A DNA stretch of 64,000 nt from an uncultured Bacillota bacterium (GTDB lineage Bacteria; Sysuimicrobiota; Sysuimicrobiia; Sysuimicrobiales; Segetimicrobiaceae), in contig CAWDRG010000019.1 in assembly GCA_963804645.1 (NCBI GenBank), forward strand, positions 224,001 to 288,000, written 5' to 3'. A program made the position numbers and the translations under genes. Within the stretch, counting starts at the first letter, position 1. Each line of letters starts with the position of its first letter. This document shows, one piece after another, positions 18,406 through 49,633 of the stretch. Below the pieces are notes generated by a model that worked only from the letters and a program-made list of their open reading frames with translations, had not been told where the DNA came from and made no database searches.

Positions 18406-18598
18406 TCCCCACGGGTTCGAGGGCCGCCGCCGCAGGAGTTTCGGAACCCGGGATAGCTGATCCACCGGGTCGCCCATAAAGAGGCCGATAAGGCGGCCGC
18501 TGCCAGCATCGTGGCAGGGGCCTCTATTTTCGCATTCGAACGGAGTACTTGCATTCACGAGTATCTTATGCTACTAATTACCATAGGATGAGGCGTCG

Positions 18599-18988
18599 AT
18601 GACAAAACCGACCCCGAAGTTGCGCGTGGACTTCACGGCGCCGCGCGGCCCGGTGGCGGCGCGGCTGCGGCAGCAGCAGCATGAGCTGTTGCGACGGTTT
18701 CGGTTGCCGGCGGAGTTGCTGGAGCAGTTGCCGGGATCGTTGTCGTTGACTCATTTGCGGTGTGGGAAACCGACGTGCCACTGTGCGCGCGGTGAAGGAC
18801 ATCCGGCGTGGCATCTGACGTACACCGTCGGGGGGCGGAAACAGGTGCTGCACATTCCGACCGCGCTGGCGGAGGAGATCGGGCACCGGGTGGAGGCGGG
18901 GCATGCGGTGCAGGATGCGGTCCGCGACGTGCTGGCCGCTAACGCGCAGTTGTTGAAGTTGGCGCGTCAGCAGCAGCGGCGGCGATGA
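18599..18988 (+). CDS. IS accessory protein, DUF6788-like, putative zinc-binding
   Basis: LPGSL...RCGKPTCHCA...GHP.W.LT; stop overlaps the transposase ATG (ATGA). Confidence 0.85.
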   Translation: MTKPTPKLRVDFTAPRGPVAARLRQQQHELLRRFRLPAELLEQLPGSLSLTHLRCGKPTCHCARGEGHPAWHLTYTVGGRKQVLHIPTALAEEIGHRVEAGHAVQDAVRDVLAANAQLLKLARQQQRRR

Positions 18989-20184
18989 GAGGGCCGACCC
19001 CGCGGCGTCTGTGGAAGTACGTCGTGCAGCGCTTACGCTTGGCCACCTACTTCGCGGCGCCTGGGGATGAGCGGCCCGCGCCGCAAATTCCGGCGCGGGC
19101 GATCTTGTGGGGGCTGGTGATCGGGCACATTCTGCGGGAAGACGCGTTTGCGGGGGTGGATGCCCTGGTCCGGGGCGCGGCCCGGGCGCTGGGCGTGGGC
19201 CGGCGGTTCAGTCACGATACGCTGGCATATGTGACCGCGCGGTTGGATCCGGGGCCGACGCGCGCGGCGTTGAGCGCGGTGGCACGCCGCGCGAAGCGGA
19301 ATAAAGCCTTGGTGGGCAGTGGGTGGATTGGCCTCGCGGTGGATGGCACCGCGACCACCTGTCTCAGCAAGCCGGGGACCGACTGTCCGTACTGTCGACC
19401 GTTGCGCAAAGAGGATGGCACCCTGCTAGGGTATCGGCATGAGATGGCCGTGCTGAGCATCGTGAATGCGGGCGTGACGTTGCCGTGTGACCTGGAGCTC
19501 TACGGGCCGGGCGACAGTGAGTCGGCGGCGGGGCAGCGCGTGCTGCGGCGCGGGGTGGCGGCGTTGGGGCCGCGGTTCGCCGACTATGTCGTGGGCGACA
19601 GCAAATTCGCGACGGCACCCTTCCTGCATACGGCGGGGGACGTCGGCCTGCGGGTGGTGGCGCGCTTAAAGGACAATCTCCCGGAGCTCCATGCCGCGGC
19701 GCAGGCGCGGTTTGTGGGCCGCATGCCGACCGCGACGTTCACAGACGGTCGCGATCAGCTGGAGGTGTGGGATGCGAGCGATTTCGATCCGTGGGTGGGG
19801 CTGCGGTGGAAGACGGTACGCGTCCTGAAGTATCGGCAGACCAAGCCGAACGGCAAGATCATCGAAGCGTTCTGGTTGACCGATTGGCCGGTGAGTCTGG
19901 TGTCCAGTCACGCCTTGTACCGCATGGCCAAGAGCCGGTGGGAGATCGAGAATCAGATCTTCAATGTGGCGAAAACGTACCACGGATTGGAGCACGTCTG
20001 CCACCATCAAGGCACGAGCCTTGTGGCGAGTTGGCTCATTACGCTGCTGGCGATCGCCATCGAAACGCTCTACCGTCTCCGCTTCTTGCATCGCGGCTCG
20101 CATCCCGTGCTCGCGGCGATCGACCTCTGCCGGCGCCTGCGGATGCAGCTCGCGTGCCGTCCCGCTAGCGCGGCCCCCGGCTAA
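18985..20184 (+). CDS. DDE transposase
   Basis: AVDGT (D), CPYC insert, VVGDSKF (D), LKDNLPEL, SRWEIENQIF (E). Confidence 0.88.
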   Translation: MRGPTPRRLWKYVVQRLRLATYFAAPGDERPAPQIPARAILWGLVIGHILREDAFAGVDALVRGAARALGVGRRFSHDTLAYVTARLDPGPTRAALSAVARRAKRNKALVGSGWIGLAVDGTATTCLSKPGTDCPYCRPLRKEDGTLLGYRHEMAVLSIVNAGVTLPCDLELYGPGDSESAAGQRVLRRGVAALGPRFADYVVGDSKFATAPFLHTAGDVGLRVVARLKDNLPELHAAAQARFVGRMPTATFTDGRDQLEVWDASDFDPWVGLRWKTVRVLKYRQTKPNGKIIEAFWLTDWPVSLVSSHALYRMAKSRWEIENQIFNVAKTYHGLEHVCHHQGTSLVASWLITLLAIAIETLYRLRFLHRGSHPVLAAIDLCRRLRMQLACRPASAAPG

Positions 20185-20390
20185 CCCCCAGGCAGCGTGT
20201 CGAGGACGCGACCTCTGGCTTGCGGCCTCTCGAAGCCGCCGGCCTCGTCTCCCTCCACCCCCCAACAGCCCTTGCGTCGATGCCGGTCGGATTGATTCGG
20301 GACGCAAACACGCGCTCGGGCCTCTATTTTCGCCTCTCTTGCGTCCCCCCCAACGCAGGTTGCGAAATTGCTGCCGCCGCCGTGCGCTTC

Positions 20391-20420
20391 TTGTCAGTAA
20401 TCGACGTCCTGTGATATACT
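20391..20420 (+). promoter_or_regulatory. Sigma70-type promoter of the rimP-nusA-infB operon
   Basis: TTGTCA-18 nt-TATACT with extended TG. Confidence 0.7.
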
Positions 20421-20466
20421 GACGAAGGTTCGAAGTAAGGGCGGGCCCCAATCGTGGCGTGATCGG

Positions 20467-20494
20467 GAGTGGGTAGTTCGGGACCCACTCTTTT
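20467..20494 (+). terminator. rimP leader attenuator hairpin
   Basis: GAGTGGGT-8 nt-ACCCACTC-TTTT between promoter and rimP start. Confidence 0.7.
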
Positions 20495-20540
20495 CCTTCT
20501 TACCGGAACGCCGGAGGAGGGGGGCACGCGAGGGCAACGG

Positions 20541-21035
20541 ATGAGACGCCGGGAGATCGCGGACCAGGTGACGGTGCTGGCGGCCCCGATCGCTGCGAGG
20601 CTCGGCCTCCAGATCGTGGACGTCGAACTGGCCGGCGCCGCGGGGCACCAGGTGGTCCGGGTGCTGGTGGAGCGGGACGGGGACGTGGGCGTCGAAGACT
20701 GTGCGAAGCTCAGCGAGGCGCTCGGGCGGGAGATGGACCTGTACGACCTCCCGATCGGGACCTATACGCTGGAGGTGGCATCGCCCGGTCTGGACCGGCC
20801 GCTTCGGAGGCCTGAGGAGTTCATCAGGTTTTCCGGGCGGAACGTGTCGGTGACGACGTTCGCGCCCGTAGACGGGCAGCGGCGGTTTCGCGGACAGCTG
20901 CTCGGCCTGGTCGACGGGGCGGTGACAGTGCGGCTCGAGGATGGACGCGAGGTGCGGTTTCCGCCCTCGGACATCGCGCAGGCGAGGCTCGTGGTCGGGA
21001 TGGACGATCTGCGGGCGGATCTGAGACGGTCATAA
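20541..21035 (+). CDS. rimP: Ribosome maturation factor RimP
   Basis: VEDCAKLSEAL; YTLEVASPGLDRPL; upstream of nusA. Confidence 0.95.
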   Translation: MRRREIADQVTVLAAPIAARLGLQIVDVELAGAAGHQVVRVLVERDGDVGVEDCAKLSEALGREMDLYDLPIGTYTLEVASPGLDRPLRRPEEFIRFSGRNVSVTTFAPVDGQRRFRGQLLGLVDGAVTVRLEDGREVRFPPSDIAQARLVVGMDDLRADLRRS

Positions 21036-21101
21036 CGCTGGACGACAGGCTTCCGGGCGGTGCGGGAGGGCGGCCGCCGGAGGCGTGGGGGTGACGCCAG
21101 G

Positions 21102-22301
<1,200 letters not shown>

Positions 22302-22304
22302 GCG

Positions 22305-22661
22305 ATGCCCAAAGTACGCAAAATCCCTCAGCGGCAGTGTGTCGCCTGCGGCGAGACGCGGAGCAAGCGGGACCTGGTCCGCGTCGTCCGCACGCCCGCG
22401 GGCGACGTGCGTGTGGACGCGACGGGCAAGTTGTCCGGGCGCGGGGCCTACGTGTGCCCGGCCCCCAGCTGTGTCGACCGTGCCCTTCGCGACGGCCGGC
22501 TCGCGGGCATCCTCGAACGGCCGCTGCCGGAAACCCTGTCCGAGGCCCTCAGGGAGGCGGTGTCGCGGGATACGACGCCCCGCGCCCCCGTCGTGCGTCG
22601 GATCTCGCTCCGCCAGGCCGCGGAGGCCCTGCGGGGCGAGCCGGAGGGACGGAACGAATGA
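22305..22661 (+). CDS. ylxR: YlxR/RnpM family RNA-binding protein
   Basis: PQRQCVACG; LVRVVRTP; GRGAYVC. Confidence 0.93.
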   Translation: MPKVRKIPQRQCVACGETRSKRDLVRVVRTPAGDVRVDATGKLSGRGAYVCPAPSCVDRALRDGRLAGILERPLPETLSEALREAVSRDTTPRAPVVRRISLRQAAEALRGEPEGRNE

Positions 22662-22692
22662 GCGGACGTGGAGATGAAATGGAGGGATCCTT

Positions 22693-25194
22693 GTGAAGGT
22701 GCATGAGCTGGCCAGGGAGCTCGGCCTGACCAGCCGGGAGCTGATTGCGCGGCTGGAGACGATGAAGGTCCCGGTCCGCAACCACATGAGCACGCTCGAC
22801 GACGACACGGTGGCGCGCCTGCGCCGCGGTCCGTCCGAGGGCGCGGCGGCAGCCGCATCTTCGCCGGCGGCGCCCGAGCCGCCGCGCGGTCCGGCGAAGG
22901 CCGTGGACGAGGACAAGATCAAGCAGAGTGCCTTCCTCCAGACGAACTACGGCGCGGAGATCAAGGGCGTGCGCGTCATTCGGACGCAGCGCGTGGAGGC
23001 GGCTCCGCCTCCGCCGCCCGAGGTGGTGGAGGTACCGGCCGAGGCCGCCCCGGTGAGGGCGGGGCAGAAGGCGCCCGTGCGTCCCGGAGCCCCAGCGCCC
23101 GCCAAGAAGCCGGAGATTAAGAAGTCCGCCCCGACGGTGCCGGCCAAGGAGCAGCGGCCCGCCGCGCAGGCGCCGGCTGCGGTCCAGGCGGCCGCACCGG
23201 CCGCCCCCGCGAAGGACAAGCCCACCGTGCGGTTTGGCGATGTGCGCAAGGCGCCGCGCTACGCGGCGGGGACGGCCGACGCGGGCACGCGCCCACTTCC
23301 CGAGACGGCCCCCGTGAGCGTGCCGGCGGAGCCGGCCAAACCGGTCGAGCCGGTGCGGCCGCAGCCCGCCGCTGCGGCGATGGCCCCCGCGGCCCCGGCG
23401 GTTCCGGCCCCCGCGGCCCCGGCTCCGGTGCGGTATCTGGAGCTCGACGGGCCGATCCAGGTCGGCGAGTTCGCCGCGCGCATGGGCGTGGGCCCGGGCG
23501 AGGTCGTCAAGAAGCTCGTCGAGAGCGGCGTGATGGCCGGCATCAACCACATGATCCCGCTCGAGGTGGCGAGCAAGATCGCCCCTGCGTTCAATTTCTC
23601 GGTCAAGGCCCCCGAGGTGGTGCAGGTCAACGAGGTCGCGTCCACTCTGGAGGCGGCCGAGGTCGCGCCCCACGAGAAGGGGACGACGCCCAGGCCGCCG
23701 GTCGTCACCGTGATGGGCCACGTCGATCACGGGAAGACGAGCCTGTTGGACGCGATTCGGAAAGCGTCCGTCGCAGCCCAGGAGTTCGGCGGGATCACCC
23801 AGCACATCGGCGCCTATACGGTCGACGTCGGCGGGAAGCCGGTCACGTTCCTCGACACGCCCGGCCACGAGGCGTTCACCGCCCTGCGGGCGCGGGGCGC
23901 GCAGGTCACCGACATCGTCGTGCTGGTGGTGGCCGCGGACGACGGCGTGATGCCGCAGACGATCGAAGCGATCAATCACGCGAAGGCGGCGCGGGTGCCG
24001 ATCATCGTGGCGATCAACAAGATCGACCTGCCGCAGACGAACCCCGACCGGGTGAAGCAGGAACTGTCGGATCTCGGCCTTGTGCCCGAGGACTGGGGCG
24101 GGGACACGATCATGGTGCCGACCTCGGCGCGCCAGGGGACCGGCCTCGACACGCTTTTGGAGATGATCCTGCTTGTGGCCGAACTGCGCGACTTCCGGGC
24201 GACGCCGGACCGGCCGGCGCGGGGGACCGTGATCGAAGCGCGGCTCGATCGGGGCCGCGGCCCGGTATCCACGGTGCTCGTGCAGGACGGCACGCTGCAC
24301 GCCGGCGACGCCGCGGTGGTCGGGGAGACGTACGGTCGCATCCGGGCCATGACGGACGACAAGGGTGTGCGGCGGATGGAGGCGGGGCCCAGCATCCCGG
24401 TCGAGGTGACGGGGCTGAGCGAGGTCCCCGCCGCCGGCGACCTGCTCGAGGTGGTGACGAACGAGCGCATCGCCAAGGCCGTCGCCGAGGAGCGGCGGGA
24501 GCGCCGCCGGGCGACCGATCAGACGCAAATCCGGCAGCTCAGCGTGGAGGAGATCTCCAAAGAGGCCGGCTCCCAGACCGAGCGCAAGGAGCTGCGCCTG
24601 ATCATCAAGGGCGACGTGCAGGGCTCCGTCGAAGCGCTCGTCGGCGCGCTCGAGCGCGTGACGACGCGGGAGGTCGTCATCACGATTCTCCACGCGGCGG
24701 TCGGCAACGTGACCGAGTCGGATGTCATGCTTGCCGCGGCGAGCCACGCGACCGTCATCGGCTTCAACGTGCGGCCCGAGCCGCCGGTGCGGCGTCTCGC
24801 CGAGAGCGAGGGCGCCGACGTGCGGCTCTACCGGGTGATCTACGAAGTGCTGGACGACGTCAAAAAGCTCGCAACCGGCCTGATCCCGCCCGAGGAAGTC
24901 GAGGTGATCACCGGCCGCGCGGAGGTCCGGCGCGTCTACTCCATCAGCCGCGTCGGCGTGATCGCGGGGTCGTACGTGCTCTCCGGCAAGATCACCCGCG
25001 GCAGCAAGTGCCGGCTGATCCGCGACGGCGTCGTGGTGCACGAGGGGGTCATCGGGTCGCTGCGCCGGTTCAAGGACGACGTGCGCGAGGTCACCGCCGA
25101 CTTCGAGTGCGGCATCGGCTTGGAGCGGTTCACTGACGTCAAGGAACGGGACATTATCGAGACGTACGCGATCGAGACGAAACCGGCCGCCTGA
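22693..25194 (+). CDS. infB: Translation initiation factor IF-2
   Basis: [10 protein letters not shown]; Pro/Ala-rich linker; [25 protein letters not shown]. Confidence 0.98.
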
Positions 25195-25219
25195 TCAGAT
25201 CCCCGCCGGGGATGGCGCG

Positions 25220-25501
25220 ATGGTCGTCGGTGTGCTGCACGTCGAGTGCGGCCTTCCTGGAACCCAGAGCATCAAAGACAAGCGGCGGGTCGTGAAGTCG
25301 CTCCTCGACCGGCTGCACCATCGGTTCCACGTGGCCGCGGCCGAAGTGGCGCACCAGGACTCGTGGCGACGGGCGGGGCTGGCCGTGGCGTGCGTGAGTA
25401 CGAGCGCACGCCACGCCGACGAGGTGCTGGCGCACGTCGCGCACGCGATCGAGCTGCACGCGGATCTCGTGCTGCTCGACTACCACATTGAGATGCGGTG
25501 A
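25220..25501 (+). CDS. ylxP: DUF503 (YlxP) family protein
   Basis: SIKDKRRVVKSL; AEVAHQDSW; position between infB and rbfA. Confidence 0.9.
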   Translation: MVVGVLHVECGLPGTQSIKDKRRVVKSLLDRLHHRFHVAAAEVAHQDSWRRAGLAVACVSTSARHADEVLAHVAHAIELHADLVLLDYHIEMR

Positions 25502-25507
25502 GACACC

Positions 25508-25873
25508 ATGACGTCCCCACGGATCGCCCGATTACGCGAACTGTTCAAGCAGGAGGCCAGCGTCATTCTTCAGCGGTCGATGAACGATCCCCGCGTCGGG
25601 TTCGTGTCGGTCACGGACGTGGATCTGAGCGGTGACCTGAGGCACGCGAAGATCTTCGTGAGCGTGTATGGCGACGCGAAAGAGAAGACGCGCACGATGG
25701 CGGCGCTGACGAGCGCGCGGGGATTCGTCCGGACCGAGCTGGCCCGTCGGATCCGGCTCCGGTACTTCCCCCAAGTGCACTTCCAGATGGATGAGTCGAT
25801 CGAGCGGGGCGCCCGCGTGAACAGCCTGCTGCGGCAGGTGAAGCCCCCCGACCCCCCGCGGGACCCTGCATGA
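25508..25873 (+). CDS. rbfA: Ribosome-binding factor A
   Basis: DPRVGFVSVTDVDLSGDLRHAKIFVS; IRLRYFP; DESIERG. Confidence 0.96.
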   Translation: MTSPRIARLRELFKQEASVILQRSMNDPRVGFVSVTDVDLSGDLRHAKIFVSVYGDAKEKTRTMAALTSARGFVRTELARRIRLRYFPQVHFQMDESIERGARVNSLLRQVKPPDPPRDPA

Positions 25874-26844
25874 GCCCAGCCACGCGGATCGCCGAGGCCC
25901 TCCGAGGCCGCAGCCACGTGCTGCTGCTCGGCCACGTCTCCCCCGACGGCGACAGCCTCGGGTCCACCCTGGCCCTCGCCCGGGCGCTGTGGACGTGCGG
26001 GCAGCACGCGACCGTGGGGAGCGCCGACGGGGTGCCCACGATGTACCGGTTTCTGCCGGGGAGCGAGCGGATTCAGACGGCCCTTCCGGACGGCGCGACG
26101 TACGATGCGGTCGTGTTCATGGAGTGCAGTTCACCGGAGCGCGCCGGGGCGCTCGCGGCCCGCGCCGCCGGCGTTCCGCTCTGGGTCAATATCGATCACC
26201 ACGTCAGCAACTCGGGGTTCGGCGACCTGATCGACCACGATCCCGCGGCCGCCGCGGTCGGGGAGCTCGTCTATCCGATCGTCCGAGAATTTCTGCCCAC
26301 CCTCGACGCCGGAACGGCGACGTGCCTGCTGTGCGCGCTGTTGACGGACACCGGCAGCTTTCGGTATCAGAGCGTCGCGCCGGGCACGCTCCGCATCGCC
26401 GCGGACCTGGTCGCCGCCGGCGCGAGCGTGGCCGAGGTGTACGAACAGGTCTACGAGAACCGGCCCGCCAGCGCGCTGCACCTGCTCGGCAAGGCGCTCG
26501 ACCGCTGCGCGCTTGCGGAAGAGGGCCGCGTCGCGTGGACCGTCGTGACGCAGGCGATGCTCCGGGAGACCGGCGCCGTCATGGAGGACTCCGAAGGCAT
26601 CATCGGCGCGCTCCGAGGGATTGCCGGCGTCGAGGTCGCCGCGCTGTTCAAGGAGGAGCCGGACGGCATTCGCGTGAGCCTGCGGGCGCGGGGCCGCGTG
26701 CGGGCGCATGTGATCGCGGGGGCGTTCGGCGGGGGCGGGCACGCCGCGGCCGCCGGCTTCACCGGTCACGGCAGCCTGGATGACGTCGTGCGGCAGACGC
26801 TCGAAGTCGTCCAGCGTGAGCTGGGCGCGGTTTCGGAGTCGTAG
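25870..26844 (+). CDS. nrnA: DHH/DHHA1 phosphoesterase (NrnA-like oligoribonuclease/pAp phosphatase)
   Basis: HVSPDGDSLGS; NIDHH; TDTGSF; GGGGHAAAAG. Confidence 0.92.
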   Translation: MSPATRIAEALRGRSHVLLLGHVSPDGDSLGSTLALARALWTCGQHATVGSADGVPTMYRFLPGSERIQTALPDGATYDAVVFMECSSPERAGALAARAAGVPLWVNIDHHVSNSGFGDLIDHDPAAAAVGELVYPIVREFLPTLDAGTATCLLCALLTDTGSFRYQSVAPGTLRIAADLVAAGASVAEVYEQVYENRPASALHLLGKALDRCALAEEGRVAWTVVTQAMLRETGAVMEDSEGIIGALRGIAGVEVAALFKEEPDGIRVSLRARGRVRAHVIAGAFGGGGHAAAAGFTGHGSLDDVVRQTLEVVQRELGAVSES

Positions 26845-26852
26845 GGGCGCCG

Positions 26853-27800
26853 GTGGACGGAATCCTCTGCGTGCTGAAGCCGCCGGGCATGACGTCGCAC
26901 GACGTCGTGGATGTCGTGCGGCGCCTCGTGGGGATTCGCCGGGTCGGGCATACCGGGACGCTCGACCCGGGCGCCGCGGGCGTGCTCGTGTGCTGCGTCG
27001 GCCGCGCCACGCGGCTCAGCGAGTTCTTGATGGACGCCGACAAGGAGTACCGCGTGGAACTTCGGCTCGGGATGAGCACGAGCACCGGGGACGCGTACGG
27101 CGAGCTCCTCCCGCCCGCCGACGCGGAGCAGGCCGCGCGGCCGGTGCCGCGCGCGGCGCTGGACCAGGCGCTCCGGCAGTTCACGGGAGAGATCATGCAG
27201 ATCCCGCCGATGGTGTCGGCGATTCACCACGGCGGGACGCGGCTGTACCAGCTCGCGCGCCGCGGCGAGGTGGTCGAGCGGGACGCACGCAAGGTCTCGA
27301 TCTACCGCATCGACGTGCTGCGCGCCTCCGAGGATGGGCGGACGGTCCTGCTGCACGTCTCCTGCGGCAAGGGGACGTACATCCGCACACTGTGCGCCGA
27401 CGTGGGCGACGTGCTCGGCGTCGGCGGGTACGCGCACTTCATGATCCGCACCCGCGCGGGGCAGTTCGAGCTCGAGGACGCGTGGACGCTCGAAGAGCTG
27501 GCCGCGGCCCAAGCGCGCGACGCGCTGGCCGAGGCCCTCGCGTCGATGGACCGCGCCGTCACCCACCTGCCGGCGGTGGACCTCCCCGACCGGTCGGTGA
27601 CGGACGTGCTGCACGGTCACCCCGTGCCGTTATGGAAGCTGGGAGACACCCGCGTGTCGGACGACAGTCCGGTCCGGCTCCGCAGCCGGCAGGGCACCCT
27701 CATCGCGCTGGCGCGCATCGAGGACGGGGCGCTGCGGCCGTTCAAGGTGCTCGCGGGACCCGAGGGAGGGTCGGTTGCGCATCGCGCGCGGCCTCGCTGA
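26853..27800 (+). CDS. truB: tRNA pseudouridine(55) synthase
   Basis: KPPGMTSHDVV; GHTGTLDP; CGKGTYIRTL. Confidence 0.97.
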   Translation: MDGILCVLKPPGMTSHDVVDVVRRLVGIRRVGHTGTLDPGAAGVLVCCVGRATRLSEFLMDADKEYRVELRLGMSTSTGDAYGELLPPADAEQAARPVPRAALDQALRQFTGEIMQIPPMVSAIHHGGTRLYQLARRGEVVERDARKVSIYRIDVLRASEDGRTVLLHVSCGKGTYIRTLCADVGDVLGVGGYAHFMIRTRAGQFELEDAWTLEELAAAQARDALAEALASMDRAVTHLPAVDLPDRSVTDVLHGHPVPLWKLGDTRVSDDSPVRLRSRQGTLIALARIEDGALRPFKVLAGPEGGSVAHRARPR

Positions 27801-28722: not shown

Positions 28723-28788
28723 TGCCGGAGGGCCACCGGAGGGGCGCGGAAGACCACGGGGCATTGCAGGAGCCCCCGGCCACGAGTC

Positions 28789-39421: not shown

Positions 39422-39444
39422 CGGGAGCCACCTCCAGCGCCGTG

Positions 39445-39876
39445 CTAGCGCGTCGTGCCCGTCGACCGCATGCGCGCGGCGATCGTCCGAAAGTCCGCGG
39501 CCGGGATCTCGAGAAACCCGAACCGGAACGGCGCGCCCCACCGTGCCTTGTTCTTGATGAAGGACAGACGCGCGATGAGGGGACGGATGCTGACCTCCGC
39601 GGCCCGCTCGTACCGGACCCGTCGCCGGTAGGGCTGAAACCCGGGCGACTGCTCGACCTGGATGGGTTCGGCGTCGAGGACCCGTCCGATCGCCGTGAAC
39701 TGCTGACAGAGCGTCGGTCCATCGTACGTTTCCTTGCCCGAATAGTAGATCACCCAGTCGCCTTTCGAGAGCCGCTTGGCCGGGCCAAGATTCCCATGGC
39801 CGAACTGCGCGAAGCCGCCCCGCCGCCCGAGCCGCACGTGCTCCCTGGACGCGACCCCGATCCAGTAGCGCGTCAT
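39445..39876 (-). CDS. EVE domain protein (YdcG-like)
   Basis: YWIGVASREHV; GDWVIYYS; FTAIG; FRFGFLEIP..DF..I. Confidence 0.88.
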   Translation of the reverse strand: MTRYWIGVASREHVRLGRRGGFAQFGHGNLGPAKRLSKGDWVIYYSGKETYDGPTLCQQFTAIGRVLDAEPIQVEQSPGFQPYRRRVRYERAAEVSIRPLIARLSFIKNKARWGAPFRFGFLEIPAADFRTIAARMRSTGTTR

Positions 39877-40106
39877 GCCCGATCGCCCCCGCCGCGGTGT
39901 GTCACCACGTGTCAGTCTACGTTTTCAACATCCTGCCATTCGGTCAACTGCGCACGAGCATCCGCCGGCGCTGGTGAACTCCTCGCCTTACTGGGATTCG
40001 TTCGGCGAGCGTCCCGTTATCCTCCCGTCGCCGCGCCATGCGCCCCTCCCGTGCCCGCACGGTGAGGGAACATGCGGCGCCGCCCACCGACGAGCCGTTC
40101 GTTCGG

Positions 40107-41483
40107 CTACTTCTTCTTGCAACTGCCGCTCGTCGCATCCCACGTGTCTTTGGCTCCACACGTTGTCTCCACCCACTTGACTGCCCCGGTCGGCAGGGTG
40201 ATGACGAGATGCCGGGAACTCTTGTTGTTGTCGGTCAGCATGTGGACCTTCGGGTCGGTATTGATCCCCACAAATTTGCCGCTTCCCTTGACCCCGTCGT
40301 CCTTGATCAGATCGGCGGACCCCTGCATCGTCACTGACGAGAAAACGGGCCATTCTCCCGCACCCTTGGTGTCATCTTCGATGATGAATTCCGCCTGCCA
40401 GCCGAGCTTGCCGTTGCCCAGGTCGCTGGCAATGAGCTTGTAGGACGGGCAGTCTGAGCTTGCGGCCTTGTCGCACTCCCATTGTGTGTGTCGGGTGATG
40501 TCGACCATGTTCGTGCACTCGTAGCCACCGGTCAGATCCAAGCCTCCCTTGGCGTTGCAATACCACTCCTCGAGGGAAATGCGGTCGCCGGGCACCGGAG
40601 TGAATCGTGTTCCCGCGGTGTCGATTCCCTTGTTGCTGTGAGGGTCAAACGATTGGCGGTGAATCGCAAAGGACGCGGCCGTCGCCGTCGAATTGACATC
40701 GATGACGGCTTGGAACACATTGTCGAGCCCGTTCCATATCGTCATCGCGGCCGTGGGCCCGGGCGTGACCTTTGGGACCACGACGGTCGCCGAACTCGCC
40801 CCGTAACTGATGGTCTCAGCGGCCGTCGCCTTCTTTTGGAAGGAACCTTGAAGGATGACCCCGGTCCAGCCGGACGACGGGCTCTTGTAGACGTTCGCGT
40901 TCAACACGGGGGCCTGCAACGTTCGGTCGGTACGGAGCTTGTACACCGGCACGCTCGCCGCGGCCAGCCACTGTTGGTACGCGTCCGGATTCGCTGTCGG
41001 ATCGGGGCGCAGTCCGTAGCCTGCCTGGACCAGCGCGTCCTGCGTGAAGCGACGCGGGTCGCCGGTCAGTGCTGGCCGTACCGCCAGCGCCGCGCGCGGG
41101 GCGTCAAACGGACGCGGTGTGAACGTCGCCTCCGAGCGAAGATCGACGACATAGGTGGTGGTCCGGTTGGTGACGCCGGTGCAATCGAGCGCCAACCGCT
41201 CGACGCTGTGCGGCAGCGTTGGACGCACCGCGAGAAAGCGGGCCACGCCATCCTCATCGGCATTGACGCGGATGGACTCCGTCGGGTCCGGGTTCCCTTC
41301 GGGGTGAAGGATGCAGTTGCTGCCCGCGGGGACGGCGACCGACGCCGGTTCAAATTGCGCCTGCCCGTCCGGGCGTTGCGGCGGCGTGCTGTGCGACGAC
41401 GCGTCAGGGGACCCCAGCAGACCCAAGATCATCACGATTGCGCACACTGCGCCGTAGCGACTCGAGGGACCGTAGCGTGCCAT
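40107..41483 (-). CDS. Secreted protein, probable divergent G1 (eqolisin-like) glutamic peptidase with propeptide
   Basis: Signal peptide; GYGLRPDP...YQQW; SSGWTG; IWNGLD..FQA; PGDRI; QAEFIIED; FSSV. Confidence 0.6.
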   Translation of the reverse strand: MARYGPSSRYGAVCAIVMILGLLGSPDASSHSTPPQRPDGQAQFEPASVAVPAGSNCILHPEGNPDPTESIRVNADEDGVARFLAVRPTLPHSVERLALDCTGVTNRTTTYVVDLRSEATFTPRPFDAPRAALAVRPALTGDPRRFTQDALVQAGYGLRPDPTANPDAYQQWLAAASVPVYKLRTDRTLQAPVLNANVYKSPSSGWTGVILQGSFQKKATAAETISYGASSATVVVPKVTPGPTAAMTIWNGLDNVFQAVIDVNSTATAASFAIHRQSFDPHSNKGIDTAGTRFTPVPGDRISLEEWYCNAKGGLDLTGGYECTNMVDITRHTQWECDKAASSDCPSYKLIASDLGNGKLGWQAEFIIEDDTKGAGEWPVFSSVTMQGSADLIKDDGVKGSGKFVGINTDPKVHMLTDNNKSSRHLVITLPTGAVKWVETTCGAKDTWDATSGSCKKK

Positions 41484-41662
41484 CGCGCGCCTCCTGTACG
41501 TCGGAATCTCCCGGCAGACTCCAGAACGCGCCCCGTCTCTGCAGCGGGGACCTCTCTCGCTCTAATGTCAGAGTATACCTCCGCGTGGCCCCGTCTACCG
41601 CCGCGGCGGCAGGGTTTGCCGCGGGACGGGGCCAACTTCTGCCGGACATGGGCGCGGGGACG

Positions 41663-42967
41663 ATGCGGCCGTACGACGTGATCAAGACCAAGCGCGACGG
41701 CGGGGAACTGCCCCCCGACGCGATCGACGGATTTATTTCGGACTACCTCGGCGGGCGGGTCACCGACGGGCAGGCCGCGGCGTTCCTGATGGCCGTGTAC
41801 TACCGCGGCATGAGCGAGCGCGAAACCACGGCGCTGACCGCCGCGATGGTCCGCAGCGGCACGACGCTGGATCTCAGCCGCATCCGCGGCCCGAAGGTGG
41901 ACAAGCACAGCACCGGCGGGGTTGGCGACAAGACGTCGCTCGTCGTGGTGCCGCTCGTCGCGAGCGTCGGGGTGCGGGTCGCGAAGCTCTCCGGCCGGGC
42001 GCTCGGCCACACGGGCGGGACGCTCGACAAGCTCGAGGCGATTCCGGGCCTGCGGGTCGAGCGGTCCGTCGACGAGCTGATCCGTCAGGTGAACGCGATC
42101 GGGTGCGCGATCGTGAGCCAGTCCGCGGACCTGGTCCCGGCCGACAAGCGCCTGTACGCGCTGCGCGACCAGACCGCGACGGTGGACAGCGTGCCCCTGA
42201 TCGCCGCGAGCGTGATGAGCAAGAAGCTCGCGGCCGGCAGCGACGCGATCGTGCTCGACGTGAAGGTGGGCCGGGGTGCCTTCATGAAGACGCTCGACGA
42301 CGCGCGGGCGCTGGCGCGGGCGATGGTGGGGATCGGCCGCGGCGTAGGGCGGCGCACGGTCGCGGTGCTCAGCCGGATGGACCAGCCGCTCGGGTGCACC
42401 ATCGGCAACGCGCTCGAGGTCGCGGAGGCGGTGCGGACGCTGCGCGGCGGCGGGCCGGACGACCTGCGCGAGCTGAGCCTCGCCCTCGGCGCGCACATGG
42501 TCCTGCTGGCCGGCCTCGCCGAGACGCCGGCCGCCGCGCGGGCGCTGCTCAAGGCCCGGCTCGCCGACGGCAGCGCGGCCGGTCGGTTCGCGGACATGGT
42601 GGCGGCGCAGGACGGCGATCGACGGGCGGTGGAGGAGCTCGAGCGGCTGCCGCTGGCGCCGATCGCTGAGCCCGTACGTGCGCCCGCCGACGGCGTCGTG
42701 ACCGCCATCGACGCCGAGGCGCTCGGCGGCGCCGCGATCACACTCGGCGCCGGCCGCGCGGGTGCCGGTGACGCCGTGGATCCCGTGGCGGGTCTGGTGC
42801 TGGAGCGGAAGATCGGGGACGCGGTGCGCCGGGGCGAGACGCTGGCCGTGCTGCACACGTCGGCGCGCGGGAGGCTGGGGCGGGCCGCGGACGTGGTGGC
42901 GTCCGCGTACGCGATCGGGACGTCCGCACCCGCGTCGGAGCCTCTGGTGATTGACACGATCCACTAG
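41663..42967 (+). CDS. pdp: Pyrimidine-nucleoside (thymidine) phosphorylase
   Basis: DKHSTGGVGDK; SGRALGHTGGTLDKLE; SVMSKK; DVKVGRGAFMK. Confidence 0.96.
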   Translation: MRPYDVIKTKRDGGELPPDAIDGFISDYLGGRVTDGQAAAFLMAVYYRGMSERETTALTAAMVRSGTTLDLSRIRGPKVDKHSTGGVGDKTSLVVVPLVASVGVRVAKLSGRALGHTGGTLDKLEAIPGLRVERSVDELIRQVNAIGCAIVSQSADLVPADKRLYALRDQTATVDSVPLIAASVMSKKLAAGSDAIVLDVKVGRGAFMKTLDDARALARAMVGIGRGVGRRTVAVLSRMDQPLGCTIGNALEVAEAVRTLRGGGPDDLRELSLALGAHMVLLAGLAETPAAARALLKARLADGSAAGRFADMVAAQDGDRRAVEELERLPLAPIAEPVRAPADGVVTAIDAEALGGAAITLGAGRAGAGDAVDPVAGLVLERKIGDAVRRGETLAVLHTSARGRLGRAADVVASAYAIGTSAPASEPLVIDTIH

Positions 42968-42976
42968 GAGGGCGGC

Positions 42977-43834
42977 ATGGCGTTTCGTCAGATCGGGGTG
43001 GTAGGGTGCGGGCTGATGGGCTCGGGGATCGCCGAGGTCGCCGCGCGGGCCGGGTTTCCGGTCGTCGTGCGAGAGGTGACCGACGAGCTGGTGACGCGCG
43101 GGCTCGACCGGATCGACCGCTCGATGGCGCGCGGCGTCGAGCGCGGCAAGCTCGCCGCGGGCGACCGCGACGCCGCGCGCGGCCGGATCCGCGGCACCAC
43201 GCGCCTCGCCGACCTCGCCGCCTGCGACCTCGTGTGCGAGGCCATCATCGAGAACATGGACCAGAAGAAGGCGCTGTATCGGGAGCTCGACGGCCTGTGC
43301 CCGCCGGAGACGGTGTTCGCGAGCAATACGAGCTCGCTGAGCATCACCGAGATGGCGTCGGTGACGCGGCGTCCGGCGCGGTTTCTCGGGCTGCACTTCT
43401 TCAATCCCGTGCCCGTGATGAAGCCGGTCGAGATGGTCCGCGGGCTGCAGACGTCGGACGAGACCCTGGCGCTCGCGCGCGCGTTTGCGGAGCAGGTCGG
43501 CAAGACCGTCGTCGCCTGCAAAGACTATCCGGGGTTCATCGTCAACCTGCTGCTCGTGCCCTATCTGCTCGACTCGATCCGGGCGCTGGAGCTCGGGCTG
43601 GCGACGAAAGAGGACATCGACACGGCGGTCACCCTCGGGCTCAACCATCCGATGGGGCCGTTGACGCTGCTCGACTTCGTCGGGATCGACACGACGTACT
43701 ATATCGCCGAGGCGATGTTCGAGGAGTTCAAGGATGCCCGCTACGCCGCCCCGCCGTTGATGCGCAAGATGGTGCTCGCGGGCCTGCACGGACGGAAGAC
43801 CGGGCGCGGATTTTACGAGTATCCGGCACGCTGA
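42977..43834 (+). CDS. hbd: 3-hydroxybutyryl-CoA dehydrogenase
   Basis: GCGLMGSGIA; ASNTSSLSI; GLHFFNP; PGFIVN; HPMGPL. Confidence 0.93.
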   Translation: MAFRQIGVVGCGLMGSGIAEVAARAGFPVVVREVTDELVTRGLDRIDRSMARGVERGKLAAGDRDAARGRIRGTTRLADLAACDLVCEAIIENMDQKKALYRELDGLCPPETVFASNTSSLSITEMASVTRRPARFLGLHFFNPVPVMKPVEMVRGLQTSDETLALARAFAEQVGKTVVACKDYPGFIVNLLLVPYLLDSIRALELGLATKEDIDTAVTLGLNHPMGPLTLLDFVGIDTTYYIAEAMFEEFKDARYAAPPLMRKMVLAGLHGRKTGRGFYEYPAR

Positions 43835-43868
43835 TGGAGCAGGCTCCTGCACCGGTCGGCCGATCGGC

Positions 43869-44489
43869 ATGACGACGCCGGAGTGGCTCGATCTCCTGGA
43901 TTGGAAGCGCCGCGTGTTCGACCTGTACCGCGAGATCAGGCTCGAACCGGATCCGGAGGCCGCGTGGCGCCGGTGGCGCGCGGTGCGTGACGACCTGTTC
44001 GCGACGCATCCGCAGTCCCCGCTGTCGCCCGACGCGCGCGGCTCCTTCGGCGGGCTCGCGTACTTTGGGTACGACCCGTCCGCGCGCGTGCTCGCCGAGA
44101 TCCGCCCGGCGGAGCCGGCGCCCTACGCACTCAGCGGCAGCGACGGCACGCCCTACGGCGCCGCGCGCGTCGCCACCGCGTCCTTCGCACTGGGGGGGCG
44201 GGCGAGCGCGGTCGAGCTGTACTGGCTGGAAGGGTACGGCGGGGGCCTGTTCCTGTCGTTCGCCGACCAGACGAGCGGCGGTGAGACGTACGGCGGCGGC
44301 CGCTACCTGCTCGATACGATTAAGGGGGCGGACCTCGGAGACCGGGACGGACGCCTGTTGCTCGACTTCAATTTTGCCTATCATCCCTCGTGCGTGTACG
44401 ATAGTCGGTGGAGCTGCCCGCTGGCGCCGCCCGGGAACCGGCTCCCGGTGCCGGTCCGGGCGGGCGAGCGACTGGGGCGGGATCCGTAG
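43869..44489 (+). CDS. DUF1684 family protein
   Basis: HPQSPL; TSGGETYGGGRYL; LDFNFAYHPSC.Y...WSCP. Confidence 0.88.
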   Translation: MTTPEWLDLLDWKRRVFDLYREIRLEPDPEAAWRRWRAVRDDLFATHPQSPLSPDARGSFGGLAYFGYDPSARVLAEIRPAEPAPYALSGSDGTPYGAARVATASFALGGRASAVELYWLEGYGGGLFLSFADQTSGGETYGGGRYLLDTIKGADLGDRDGRLLLDFNFAYHPSCVYDSRWSCPLAPPGNRLPVPVRAGERLGRDP

Positions 44490-44537
44490 CGCAGGACCGC
44501 TTCCGTTTCGGCGGCGAATACCGACCGGGGTGATCGC

Positions 44538-45683
<1,146 letters not shown>

Positions 45684-45717
45684 CCCGCCGCGCCGCCCAG
45701 ACTCTGACCCGGGAGGA

Positions 45718-46497
45718 ATGATGAACGTCGTCGTCTGTGTGAAGCACGTGCCGGACACCGAAGCCCCAATCCGGATCCGCGGGGATGCCCGCGGCGTCGA
45801 GGAGTCGGGCCTCAACTTCGTCATGAACTACTACGACGAGCACGCCGTCGAGGAGGCGCTGCGGATCAAAGCGGCGCGGGGCGGCACCGTCACCGTGCTC
45901 ACCGCCGGGCCTGCGCGGGCCGTCGAAGCGCTCCGGGCGGGGCTGGCGATGGGCGCGGACCAGGCGGTGCACATTCAAGATCCGGCGCTCGACCTCACCG
46001 ACCACCTGCGCGTCGCGCGGGCGCTGGCCGCGGCGATCGCGCCGCTCGGCCCCGACCTCGTCCTCTGCGGCAAGCTCGCGACCGACGACAACGCGTCCGT
46101 CGTCGGCCCCGCCCTCGCCGAATACCTCGGGTTGCCGCAGGCGACGGCCGTCACCACGCTCGAGCTCGGGGAGGGCCGGGCGACCGCGCACCGCGAGCTT
46201 GAGGGCGCGGTCGAAATCCTGGAGCTTTCGCTGCCCGCGGTCGTGACCGTCGAGCGCAACATCAACGAGCCCCGCTACCCGTCGCTTCCGGGCATCATGA
46301 AGGCCAAGCGCACGCCGGTGACGACGAAGACGCTCGCCGACCTGGGACTCACCGGCGAGGGGGAGGGGGCCCGCACGGACGTGCTCGGACTCGTGCCGCC
46401 CCCCAAGCGCCAGGCGGGCCGGCTGATTCAGGGGGAGCCCGAGGTTGTCGTCCGGGAGCTGATCCGGTCGCTGCGCGAGGAGGCGAAGGTCCTGTGA
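45718..46497 (+). CDS. etfB: Electron transfer flavoprotein beta subunit
   Basis: VCVKHVPD; LAMGAD; NEPRYPSLPGIMKAK. Confidence 0.95.
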   Translation: MMNVVVCVKHVPDTEAPIRIRGDARGVEESGLNFVMNYYDEHAVEEALRIKAARGGTVTVLTAGPARAVEALRAGLAMGADQAVHIQDPALDLTDHLRVARALAAAIAPLGPDLVLCGKLATDDNASVVGPALAEYLGLPQATAVTTLELGEGRATAHRELEGAVEILELSLPAVVTVERNINEPRYPSLPGIMKAKRTPVTTKTLADLGLTGEGEGARTDVLGLVPPPKRQAGRLIQGEPEVVVRELIRSLREEAKVL

Positions 46498-47504
46498 GTC
46501 CGAACGCCGCGCACGACGTGTGGGTTCTGGCCGAGCAGGACGGGGGCGCGCCCCGGAAGATTACCTGCGAGCTGCTGGCGAAAGCCCGGTCGCTCGCGGA
46601 CGCCCTCGGCGGCCGGGTGACCGCAGTTGCCCTCGGCACCGGGATCGGGGGACTGGCGGGCGAGCTGGCGGCACGGGGCGCCGACCAGGTGCTTCTGGCC
46701 GATGCGCCGGTGCTCGAGCCGTACACGACCGACGCCCATCTCGAGGTCATCGCCCCGCTGCTCCGCGAGGCGTCCCCGGCGCTCCTGCTGGTCGGGAGCA
46801 CCGCGGCCGGGCGGGATCTGGCCCCCCGACTCGCGGCACGCGTCGGCGCCGGCATCGTCACCGACTGCGCCGCGGTGGACCTCGAAGACGGACGGGTGGT
46901 GGCGACGCGTCCGGTGATGACACGCAAGGCGATCGCCCGCGTCGGGTTTGCCGGGGACGGGCTCCGCATCGCCGTCATGCTGCCGAACGTGGTCACGCCG
47001 GCCCCGGCGGATGCCTCGCGGACGGCGGAGGTCGTGAACGTCCCGGTCAGCGTCGATCCCGCGAAGCTTCGCACCCGGGTCGTCGAGGTGCGGACCGTGG
47101 CGCGCGAGACGGTCCCGCTGACCGAAGCCGACATCATCGTCTCCGGCGGCCGGGGTCTGCGCGGTCCGGAGCACTTCGCGCTGCTCGACGCGCTCGCCGC
47201 GGTGCTCGGCGCCGCGGTGGGGTCGAGCCGGCCGCCGGTGGACTCGGGCTGGGTCCCGCACGACTACGAGATCGGGCAGACCGGCAAGACTGTGAACCCC
47301 CAACTGTACATCGCGTGCGGCATCTCCGGGGCGCCCCAGCACCAGGCGGGAATGTCGGGATCGCGGTGCATCGTCGCGATCAACAAGGACGTCCAAGCTC
47401 CGATCTTTCAGATCGCGTCGTACGGCGTGGTCGGCGACCTGTTTCAGATCGTGCCGCTGCTGACCGACGAGGTCCGCAAGCTCAAGGCCGCGCCGGCGGG
47501 ATAG
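46494..47504 (+). CDS. etfA: Electron transfer flavoprotein alpha subunit
   Basis: [29 protein letters not shown]. Confidence 0.95.
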
Positions 47505-47695
47505 CACGGCCGCCCCACCGTCCCCACCGTTCCCCTCGGCGCCTCCCGCGGGCAGCGATTTCGCAAATAGTACGGTAAGGTGACGGGTTCGCCCAGCACT
47601 ATCAGCGATTCCCGCTGATTTCTGTCGTCCGGGCATTTTTGCATTCGCAGAAAGTCCTTGCATGCCGAGGGATCTAGGAGTATAGTTGCTCCTAG

Positions 47696-48082
47696 ATGAC
47701 ACGCGCTCGGCTCCGCCTGGATTTCAGTGGACCCCGCGGTCCGGAGGCGGCGCGCCTCCGGCACCGCCGCGCGGCGGTGCGGCGGGAGCACGCGCTGACC
47801 GAGGCCGTGGAAGAGATGTTACCCGGGTCGCTGACGTTCAGCCATTTTCGGTGTGGGAAACCGACGTGTCACTGTGCCCACGACGTCGGGCATCCGAAGT
47901 GGTCGCTGACTTATATGGTCGACGGGCACAAGCGGATGCTGCACATCCCGACGGCGCTCGTGGACGACATTCGGGCGCGGGTGGACGCGGGGCGGGCGTT
48001 TCAGGACGCCGTGCGCGAGGTGTTGACGACCAACGTGGAGTTGCTCGCTCTCGCGCGCCAGCAACGGCGGAAGGCCCCGTAA
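47696..48082 (+). CDS. IS accessory protein, DUF6788-like
   Basis: RCGKPTCHCA...GHP.W.LTY, LHIPTAL and QDAVR shared with the 18599-18988 protein. Confidence 0.85.
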   Translation: MTRARLRLDFSGPRGPEAARLRHRRAAVRREHALTEAVEEMLPGSLTFSHFRCGKPTCHCAHDVGHPKWSLTYMVDGHKRMLHIPTALVDDIRARVDAGRAFQDAVREVLTTNVELLALARQQRRKAP

Positions 48083-48085
48083 GCG

Positions 48086-49344
48086 GTGGGGCGGCACGAG
48101 GTCGAGGCGTATTTCGAGAAAATCTTCAATTGGTCGGTCCTGCTGGCGGCCTGCCGGAGGGGCGGCAGCACCCGCAGCACTCGTGTCAGAAGGTCTTCGC
48201 CGCCGTCTTCTGGGGGGCGATCGGGCGGATCCCGAGCTTCCATCAGTTGGAATATGAGTGCCGGGCCGGTGGGCTGCGCCATCGGATCGGGCCGCTCAGC
48301 GAGGACACGCTGCGCTACACGCTCGAGCGCCTGGCGCCCGAAGCGGTATTGACGCTGGGCTGCGACGTGGCGCGCCGGCTGAAGCGCAATGGGGTGCTGC
48401 GCACGGACGCGGCACACGGCCTGATCGTGGCGGCGGTGGACGGGATCGAGATTTGCCAGTCCTACGTCCGCTGCTGCGACACCTGTCTGGAGCGGACGGT
48501 CGAGCGGATGATCGACGGCGTCCTGCAGACCGCCGTCCAATACTATCACCGCATCGTGGCGGTCGCCGTGGTGAGCACGCCGTTTCCGATTCCGCTGGGG
48601 CTACGCTTTCAGGCGCCGGGCGAAGGCGAAGTGGCCTGTGCACAGGCCCTGCTGGAGGAGCTGGTGGGCCAGTTGGGGCGGCGGTTCGTGGACGTCCTGG
48701 TGGCGGACGCGCTTTATTTCGGCAAGCCGGTCATCGATGCCATCGAAGCGCTTGGCCTCGACTGGGTGTGCTCCGTGAAAGACAATCAGCCCGAGTTGGT
48801 CGCGGAACTGGCGCGCAGAACGAGTGACGTGATGCCGGCGGAGACGGTGACGCCTGACGTTGTGACGCACCTCTGGTATGTGCCCGACGTGCACTGGGCG
48901 GCGGGCGACCGGTCCGTGCGGTGCGTCAAGGAGGTGCGGCGGGCCGCGCAGACGCGCGTGCACGTCCAGCGCGAGGGGGGCCACTGCACCCGCCACAAAA
49001 CGGTGGTGTGGGACGAGAGCACGAACCTCTACGCCAGTAGTCTGCTCGAGCTGGCCTGTTCCCCGGTGGGGCTCGCGGCGCTGGGGCGCGCGCGGTGGCG
49101 CATTGACACGGAAGTCTTCCAGACGCTGACGAAGGAGTGCCAGCTCAAGCATCCCGCGGTGCACCAGCAGCACGATCAAGCCTTCGTGGTGCTCACCATG
49201 ATTCGCATCCTGGCCTATACACTGCTGCTGGTGTTCTTTCATCGCCAGGTGCTGAGTCACGCCCGGCACACGCCGCCGACGCTCTGCCAGATCGCGCGCC
49301 AAATCGTCCCGGCGTTCGCCCAGGTGCACGTCGACTCGAGCTGA
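48086..49344 (+). CDS. Transposase, -1 frameshift near 48150 as assembled
   Basis: N-terminus MGRHEVEAYFEKIFNW joins the frame carrying AVDG, CDTC, LVADALY, KDNQPEL, RWRIDT. Confidence 0.85.
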
Positions 49345-49633
49345 CCGTTGGCGCCGGAAACGCCCCAGACCCGGAGTCGCGACTCGGACTCTCAGGGCCT
49401 TCCCCCCGTCGTCACTTCCCCCCGGTCCCGTTCGCGCACTCGTGCAGCCACGAATCCACCGCAAGACTGTTCGACAGCTTCTATGCCGCCCCGGGACCTG
49501 CGGGCGTTTTGGCTACCGCTCGCCCATCTGCGAAATTGCTGCTCCCGCGGGTGCGGCCGGTGTGAAGCCTCCCGGTTCGTGGTAGTCTGATACTGTGTGG
49601 GCGCGGGACCGGCGGCCCGCGCGGGAGGCGGGG

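Follow-up and report, generated by a model that had tools for sequence, protein, structure and literature searches.

A window of 64,000 nucleotides from an uncultured Bacillota bacterium (GenBank assembly GCA_963804645.1, contig CAWDRG010000019.1, positions 224,001 to 288,000 of the forward strand; "the window" refers to this whole stretch) contains two insertion sequences (IS), termed element 1 and element 2. Each is composed of a gene for a small Cys/His protein (S1, S2) followed by a transposase gene (T1, T2). This locus raises two questions: why the two small proteins resemble each other far more than the two transposases do, and what a small protein does in such an element. A sequence-only reading of the window had proposed that the small protein is better conserved than the transposase and is a functional part of the element. 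The analysis described here found that the small gene (S) is conserved, is under purifying selection and almost always occurs with the transposase gene (T). Element 2 very probably has a mosaic ancestry, and the small protein may be a dimeric repressor of its own promoter.

The small gene and its transposase

The two elements share one layout, with terminal inverted repeats that begin with CAG, target site duplications (TSDs) of 9 and 10 bp, and an identical 13-bp right end, TGCGAAATTGCTG, which was verified by script. All of these features had been reported before and are present in the sequence. The 20 identical nucleotides at 18758 and 47849 are also there and form the sole exact word of 14 nt or more that the elements share. 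A second copy of element 1 is located on contig C6 (99.95% identical, TSD GCGGTGCCA), and a second copy of element 2 on contig C17 (about 109649-110900; 99.4% identical, 12 differing positions in all, TSD GCCGCTGGCC). Because the second copies have different flanks and their own 9- or 10-bp TSDs, both elements are real and recently mobile. Together with the layout, these copies bear out the description of the pair as related two-gene insertion sequences.

Identity between the small proteins is 58% over 122 amino acids (E 5e-47), in line with the earlier estimate of about half, and the transposases are, as had been said, far more diverged (28% identical, E 6e-23). Both small proteins belong to Pfam family DUF6788 (PF20586), scoring 54.4 bits for S1 and 64.9 bits for S2 (gathering score 27.2). 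More than 1155 homologues of S1 were obtained at E <= 0.001; among the 120 matches listed, all are PF20586 and none is informatively named. A literature search on 'DUF6788' and 'PF20586', which covered neither subscription journals nor ISfinder, found no paper. In an alignment of 42 sequences, residues C55, G56, C60, C62 and H68 are invariant. The family motif is C-x4-C-x-C-x5-7-H, which in S1 corresponds to C55-x4-C60-x-C62-x5-H68.

Relatives were collected by scanning species-representative genomes with an alignment of S, and 79 loci were kept. Most of these are labelled Acidobacteriota, with Solirubrobacterales, Planctomycetota, Gemmatimonadota, Dehalococcoidia, Opitutaceae and Micromonosporaceae also represented. 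A T match of at least 300 aa lies directly downstream of S at 68 of the 79 loci and a shorter or broken T at 9. T is absent at the other two, one of which ends 110 nt after S while the second has no T within 4 kb. The scan with an alignment of T kept 80 loci, which were pooled with the S loci to give 131 full-length T regions (scans with single T proteins are insensitive, T2 returning 2 loci and T1 only 1). S is found upstream of T in 128 of these 131 regions. Two of the remaining three have frameshift-broken remnants of S (L142, L175), and in the third T is 199 nt from a contig end. Close homologues that often lack the small open reading frame (ORF) would have argued against a role for its product, and this is not the pattern observed. 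Over 60 pairs sampled from 311 eligible representative pairs, S has a median ratio of nonsynonymous to synonymous substitution rates (dN/dS) of 0.16 and T one of 0.125. The co-occurrence, the dN/dS of S and the invariant C55/C60/C62/H68 set thus uphold the proposal that the small protein is a functional component and no passenger.

The ancestry of element 2

As a property of the family, better conservation of S than of T is not supported. Within clades, S changes slightly faster than T, with a median dN(S)/dN(T) of 1.27 (interquartile range 1.02-1.57). When S identity is compared to T identity across 68 non-redundant pairs, the pairs form a diagonal plus two off-diagonal clusters. Elements of the T1 type have T proteins 48-63% identical to T1 and S proteins 51-66% identical to S1. 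S2 is 47-60% identical to the S proteins of T1-type elements, whose transposases are only 24-33% identical to T2. The reverse contrast is found in the T-ascertained set, where an identity to T2 of 52-57% in the transposase goes with an identity to S2 of only about 28-39% in the small protein ahead of it.

Element 2 is part of a lineage represented in the trees by four elements (element 2, L025, L107 and L115). In addition to element 2 itself, members include an 82-83% relative in the same genome (D17/D18), L107 from a genome of the same genus, and L025 from a contig labelled Solirubrobacterales. In the T tree, the four rows of this lineage lie inside a 31-row T2 clade with a Shimodaira-Hasegawa-like approximate likelihood ratio (SH-aLRT) support of 99. 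The S tree unites the four S proteins of the lineage with the 35 S proteins of the T1 clade through a branch of length 2.84 (support 100).

The non-coding left end was compared by aligning 230 nt 5' of S from element 1, element 2 and 65 related loci, after which the groups were set side by side. Two of the conserved features in this region differ by group. A box located upstream of the putative promoter reads CTATTTTCGC[AG]TTCG in T1-type elements and GGCATT[CT]TTGCA in T2-type elements, including the element 2 lineage. A palindrome close to the start of S has arms of the form TCT[TA][AG]nnGTA… in T1-type elements and the element 2 lineage, and TCTGACACTA…TAGTGTCA in the other T2 elements. Since the box tracks the T type and the palindrome tracks the S type, the exchanged segment would lie between the -35 region and the S/T junction.

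The element 2 lineage is therefore read, with good confidence, as a mosaic in which a T2-type transposase and box are joined to a T1-type palindrome and small gene. In the simplest history, S and T would have kept pace with each other during the divergence of two old sister families, and a T1-type small gene would later have been brought together with a T2-type backbone in the element 2 lineage. The contrast between 58% and 28% identity would then most likely be due to this exchange of a module rather than to slower evolution of S.

A vertical history without a swap is the alternative to mosaic ancestry, and it appears quite unlikely. According to this account, S and T diverged together in the order other-T2, element 2 lineage, T1, with a burst of change in S before the element 2 lineage split off and a burst in T afterwards, on the way to T1. 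The order is compatible with both trees, and one consensus underlies the variant inverted repeats of the three groups. Where the account runs into difficulty is in the ratio of nonsynonymous differences in the two genes, pN(S)/pN(T). This ratio is 0.91 for T1 x T1 and 1.21 for T2 x T2 comparisons, 0.56 for the element 2 lineage x T1 and 1.64 for the element 2 lineage x other-T2, and it returns to 0.95 for T1 x other-T2. Two independent, gene-specific bursts would be needed to restore the last value to that seen within clades. Moreover, in the S tree with outgroups, S1 is nearest to the four S proteins of the element 2 lineage (a 5-row clade, support 96), and between elements 1 and 2, which share a genome, the proportion of synonymous differences (pS) is lower in S (0.49) than in T (0.62), which leans towards a swap.

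Several results count against the mosaic. Tree topology alone does not prove a swap, as the order given above plus one burst per gene fits both trees. In the S tree without outgroups, the 35 S proteins of the T1 clade form one side of a branch with a support of only 46. An approximately unbiased (AU) test on the S tree with outgroups did not reject a tree in which all S proteins of the T2 clade were held together (p 0.76), and the held tree scored higher; because the two long outgroup rows can move, this test is uninformative, and no conclusion rests on one of these two rows, L111, whose genome is flagged as unpublished. Dating S and T by synonymous differences also failed, pS being saturated at about 0.67-0.71 in most comparisons.

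The left end and the role of the small protein

The left end has four conserved features: the terminal repeat, the box, a TTGnnn hexamer and the palindrome. The layout of the elements is fixed, with the left inverted repeat (IRL), the subterminal box, a putative sigma-70-like promoter, the palindrome, S, T (overlapping S or within about 40 nt of it) and the right inverted repeat (IRR). About 17 nt beyond the TTGnnn hexamer comes a second hexamer, which is TAnnnT-like. It occupies the center of the palindrome, and the palindrome's right arm has its end at the S ATG. The position of the palindrome at this ATG is conserved while its arms differ between lineages, the candidate operator of the other T2 elements being of the TGACACTA type. 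In element 2 the palindrome is an 8/8 inverted repeat, equalled by 2 of 300 shuffles. In the genome, perfect 8/8 inverted repeats near the start of S are found in four S lineages, including one linked to an IS1380-family transposase, and are equalled by 1-5 of 300 shuffles. A relaxed promoter scan gave matches in 64 of 98 distinct upstream windows and in 21 of 98 shuffles. The second hexamer ends about 9 nt before the ATG and there is no Shine-Dalgarno sequence, from which we infer that the S mRNA is leaderless or nearly so.

The AlphaFold2 model of S1 has a predicted local distance difference test (pLDDT) score of 82.9. It is composed of two N-terminal helices and a strand, a CCCH knuckle, a beta-hairpin and a 40-residue C-terminal helix. 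The predicted homodimer scored 0.83 compared to 0.01 for the best control; contacts agree between three runs to 96% or more, with a pLDDT of at least 84 for the partner. This mark was attained in the calibration by 20 of 30 proteins whose solved structure is a pair of one chain and by 1 of 23 whose solved structure is a single chain, counts that are only rough as a custom alignment was used. The predicted interface involves residues 103-125 and 19-46. From the motif and these models, S is inferred to be a zinc-binding dimer held together by its long C-terminal helix. The dimer model supports the reading of the palindrome as an operator, since a palindromic site calls for a symmetric dimer.

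S may thus be a dimeric zinc-knuckle autorepressor that acts on the palindrome over its own promoter, and we give this reading a probability of roughly 0.55. S would bind zinc and dimerize through the C-terminal helix, and the dimer would occupy the palindrome over the -10 and start site. The result would be a block of the single promoter that serves S and, by coupling, T. A new copy would make transposase for as long as S has not yet accumulated, and established copies would remain silent. Of the roles suggested in the earlier reading, the repressor fits best. The transpososome partner and the targeting factor fit poorly, as DUF6788 genes of this genome also stand ahead of an IS1380-family transposase and of a large serine recombinase.

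A number of points weigh against the autorepressor. A promoter scan called no sites in either left end, so the sigma-70-like promoter is putative. In element 1 the palindrome is imperfect, and 10 nt separate it from the ATG of S downstream. Where a palindrome reaches the start codon of S, plain linkage could explain why the two are inherited together; their co-inheritance is consistent with an operator-repressor pair and is no proof of one. Four of the 12 S lineages tested (D01, D06, D07 and D12) have no significant inverted repeat near S. The fold has no informative counterpart either: a sequence search of S against the PDB found no match, Foldseek found none at E <= 0.001, and the best hit in the VIA wide search (Z 4.9) covers only the C-terminal helix, as a coiled coil.

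Of the other explanations, the one that survives best is that S is a partner of the transposase, acting at the ends of the element as a transpososome subunit, an end-binding co-factor or a target-choice factor. We consider it unlikely. S is almost never lost, and it is translationally coupled to T or nearly so (an ATGA overlap in element 1, gaps of 0 to about 40 nt in relatives). The left box recurs in inverted orientation near the right end in 6 of 24 T1-type representatives, so some protein probably binds both ends. One S type, however, serves transposases that are only 24-33% identical, and a specific protein-protein fit is made unlikely by the range of partners in this genome. About ten lineages can be told apart among its 24 DUF6788 matches, and several have 2-4 identical copies. 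Their downstream partners include T1- and T2-type transposases, an IS1380-family transposase, a large serine recombinase, and distant IS4/IS701-like DDE proteins. This breadth argues against a specific S-transposase fit and favors an autonomous function such as promoter control. Moreover, no further palindrome half-sites are found in element 1 or element 2 at up to 1 mismatch, and only 7 longer proteins with DUF6788, all singletons, occur among 8000 candidates scored, which is weak evidence against recurrent S-T fusions and for an S that normally stands by itself.

In IS10 and IS50, a hairpin conceals the start codon in read-through transcripts. That the palindrome is such an RNA hairpin, hiding the S start codon in transcripts from outside and leaving S with a different, unrelated role, is very unlikely: it does end exactly at the ATG, 85% of arm positions pair (676 of 792 in 88 distinct inverted repeats) and its left arm would be missing from transcripts of the element's own promoter, but the 116 mismatches include only 11 of the G.U type and 6 of the A.C type (99 are of other types), so that the pairing has no wobble signature and resembles that of a site in DNA more than that of a hairpin in RNA, the center coincides with the putative -10 as it would for an operator, and the obligatory S protein is left unexplained.

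For the autorepressor, the nearest functional parallels are IS1 InsA and the OrfA-type regulators, by analogy only. InsA is a small zinc-finger protein encoded before the IS1 transposase frame and represses the IS1 promoter. Its N-terminal part also begins the transposase, which is produced by a frameshift, and its binding sites are the terminal repeats. Like InsA, S is small, Cys-rich, encoded first and co-transcribed with the transposase; self-repression is only proposed for S. The two have no sequence relation, as Pfam at E <= 0.01 gives only DUF6788 for S. Unlike InsA, S is a separate ORF with CCCH spacing and a predicted coiled-coil dimer helix, and its putative site is about 120-130 bp inside the left end. 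A further transposon-encoded regulator of its own transposition genes is CvkR, the repressor of type V-K CRISPR-associated transposons (PMC9938897). CvkR belongs to the MerR family and to another type of element.

Family placement, features and other DUF6788 loci

T1 and T2 both match the Pfam domain DDE_Tnp_1 (PF01609), at 26.4 and 32.1 bits (gathering score 23). In an alignment of 13 sequences, D119, D208 and an R337-W338 motif are invariant. The earlier label 'ISAs1/IS4-like' is correct at the level of the superfamily and fails at the level of the family, where no curated NCBIfam IS model reaches its cut-off. For transpos_IS4_1 (NF033592), T1 scores 21.9 and T2 47.3 bits against a cut-off of 115. 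For ISAs1 (NF033564), T2 scores 17.5 bits against 70 and T1 has no match, and for IS701 (NF049999, IS701_3), T2 scores 17.9 bits against 170. The DDE_Tnp_1_assoc domain has no Pfam match in T1 or T2 at E <= 0.01. A search of the T profile against the PDB gave no sequence match, and T1 has one weak match among plasmids (24.8% identity).

The IS4 family in the ISfinder sense is characterized by terminal repeats that start with CA, TSDs of about 9-12 bp, and, following the third of the catalytic residues, the signature Y-(2)-R-(3)-E-(6)-K. The IS4, Tn5 (IS50), ISAs1, IS701 and IS1380 families are described as single-ORF elements. The ends of elements 1 and 2 are IS4-like, with CAG-initiated repeats and TSDs of 9 and 10 bp in four insertions. 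By eye in the alignment, T2 reads RWRIDTEVFQTLTK, corresponding to R-3-E-6-K with no Y at the expected place, and T1-type transposases read RWEIENQGFNDAK. The likeness to IS4/Tn5 (IS50), ISAs1, IS701 and IS1380 relatives thus consists of the DDE_Tnp_1 domain, the CA(G)-initiated repeats and the TSD length; the curated models set T1 and T2 apart from them, as does the lack of a PDB match. Both elements belong to an IS4-like (DDE_Tnp_1) group that lacks curation and occurs commonly in metagenome-assembled genomes, mostly labelled Acidobacteriota. The article by Guerillot et al. 2014 (PMC3942029) deals with Mutator-like transposases and has no bearing on these elements.

Table 1. Parts of elements 1 and 2, in window coordinates.
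Feature	Position	Strand	Basis
Element 1 (T1-type IS), 1941 bp	18433-20373	+	inverted repeats and 9-bp TSD
9-bp TSD CCGCCGCCG of element 1	left 18424-18432, right 20374-20382		script check
IRL of element 1, CAGGAGTTTCGGAACC	18433-18448	+	aligns with the conserved IRL of relatives, CAGCCGTTTCGGAA
IRR of element 1, reverse complement CAGCAATTTCGCAACC	20358-20373	-	read directly and second copy
Conserved box CTATTTTCGC, directly 5' of putative -35	18524-18533	+	near-invariant in alignment of element 1, element 2 and 65 upstream regions
Putative -35 hexamer TTGCAT, element 1	18549-18554	+	aligned with TTGACT/TTGATT of relatives
Imperfect palindrome TCTTATGCTA-N5-TACCATAGGA over putative -10, element 1	18564-18588	+	homologous to better palindromes of relatives
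Four-codon mini-ORF ATGAGGCGTCGATGA, between palindrome and S1	18588-18602	+	sequence reading and upstream alignment
S1, DUF6788 small protein, 129 aa	18599-18988	+	Pfam PF20586, E 1.6e-14
T1, DDE transposase, 399 aa	18985-20184	+	Pfam DDE_Tnp_1; ATG overlaps S1 stop (ATGA)
Element 2 (probable chimera: T2-type transposase with T1-type small-gene module), 1989 bp	47553-49541	+	inverted repeats and TSD
10-bp TSD CTCCCGCGGG of element 2	left 47543-47552, right 49542-49551		script check
IRL of element 2, CAGCGATTTCGCAAAT	47553-47568	+	read directly and second copy
IRR of element 2, CAGCAATTTCGCAGAT	49526-49541	-	read directly and second copy
Box GCATTTTTGCA, form of T2-type elements	47633-47643	+	group-wise comparison of upstream regions
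Putative promoter TTGCAT, 17 nt, TATAGT, element 2	47658-47686	+	relaxed scan, 8/12 matches
Perfect palindrome ATCTAGGAG-N8-CTCCTAGAT, element 2	47672-47697	+	encloses putative -10, extends into S2 ATG
S2, DUF6788 small protein, 128 aa	47696-48082	+	Pfam PF20586, E 8.1e-18
T2 transposase gene, frameshifted in window copy	48086-49344	+	GTG start 48086; remainder in frame of 48085

The features of both elements are listed in Table 1. The terminal repeats are identical at 13 of 16 positions in element 1 (counted by hand) and at 14 of 16 in element 2. A repeat search with a 9-nt seed did not report them; they were read directly and confirmed through the second copies. Non-coding sequence makes up 166 nt on the left and 189 nt on the right of element 1, and 143 nt and 197 nt in element 2. 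The TSDs of the four insertions (CCGCCGCCG and GCGGTGCCA for element 1, CTCCCGCGGG and GCCGCTGGCC for element 2) are very G+C-rich, which may be meaningless in a high-GC genome.

In element 1, the 9-nt arms of the palindrome form 7 Watson-Crick pairs, with 1 G.U-type and 1 other mismatch. Relatives have the S ATG directly at the palindrome, unlike element 1, in which the mini-ORF ATGAGGCGTCGATGA occupies the site of the relatives' S start codon. The stop codon of this mini-ORF overlaps the S1 ATG, and the mini-ORF is common to both genomic copies. The box CTATTTTCGC of element 1 has a second copy in direct orientation at 20324-20333, 50 nt from the right end.

In T1-type relatives, the box (TATTTTC) is mostly located 93 nt from the left terminus. 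Its inverted form (GAAAATA) is found 98-100 nt from the right terminus in the six representatives mentioned above (e.g. L035, L036, L040, L063, L100 and L101), where shuffles expect 0.0. A box in direct orientation near the right end is found in 0 of the 24. The recurrent box is thus a subterminal inverted repeat, and perhaps a site to which a protein binds at each end.

The window copy of element 2 is without one T near 48147 compared to its sister on C17, which results in a frameshift of T2 at about codon 21. The sister encodes an intact transposase of about 420 aa, whose GTG begins 4 nt after the S stop codon. In relatives, the N-terminus of the transposase (…RH.VEAY.EK.F.WS.L…LPEGRQHPQHS…) lies in one frame, whereas in the window copy it is split over two.

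The other DUF6788 loci of the genome vary in their surroundings. At L021 (G000:C9:199500-204100), the S gene at 760-1074 directly precedes an IS1380-family transposase (282.8 bits, cut-off 180), and 44 nt separate the start of S from a perfect palindrome on its upstream side, TGATAGCGTA|TACGCTATCA. At L015 (G000:C11:11600-16300) and L023 (G000:C15:237900-242600), DUF6788 is directly upstream of a large serine recombinase of about 690 aa with Resolvase, Recombinase, Zn_ribbon_recom and HTH_17 domains. At L023, S contains an in-frame TGA. The near-palindrome ATCTTTGGTACCAATGAT, with arms resembling those of the T1 type, extends over an internal ATG at which S may really begin. Three identical 123-aa copies of DUF6788 (L014, G000:C2:2300-7000; C15:236594; C19:303707) have a perfect palindrome, TCTGTCTG-N8-CAGACAGA, over a TAGAAT hexamer, and the genes downstream of them differ (RibD_C in one). 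Two more elements of the group lie about 1.9 kb apart at L019 (G000:C2:157800-164300). The first retains only a fragment of a T1-like transposase, together with a perfect palindrome and an S protein that shares 54% identity with S1. The second is a copy of the element 2 lineage in which S is broken by an in-frame TAG and the transposase is split.

By structure, S matches only DUF6788 clusters in the ESM Atlas. A phycobilisome cluster with a feature match of 0.78 in the same resource was discounted as a relative.

The DUF6788 gene and its palindrome could, more tentatively, make up a self-contained and portable operator-repressor cassette, captured and exchanged among unrelated mobile elements to throttle their recombinases, with element 2 as an example caught in the act. 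The usual description of an insertion sequence is one transposase gene flanked by two repeats, and here is an abundant environmental group that always carries a second gene. The unequal conservation of two adjacent genes can mean mosaic ancestry instead of unequal constraint. If S is indeed a plug-in repressor with its own operator, this would explain how very different mobile elements obtain control of their copy number. It would also give DUF6788 a function, and synthetic biology a compact, orthogonal set of repressors and operators.

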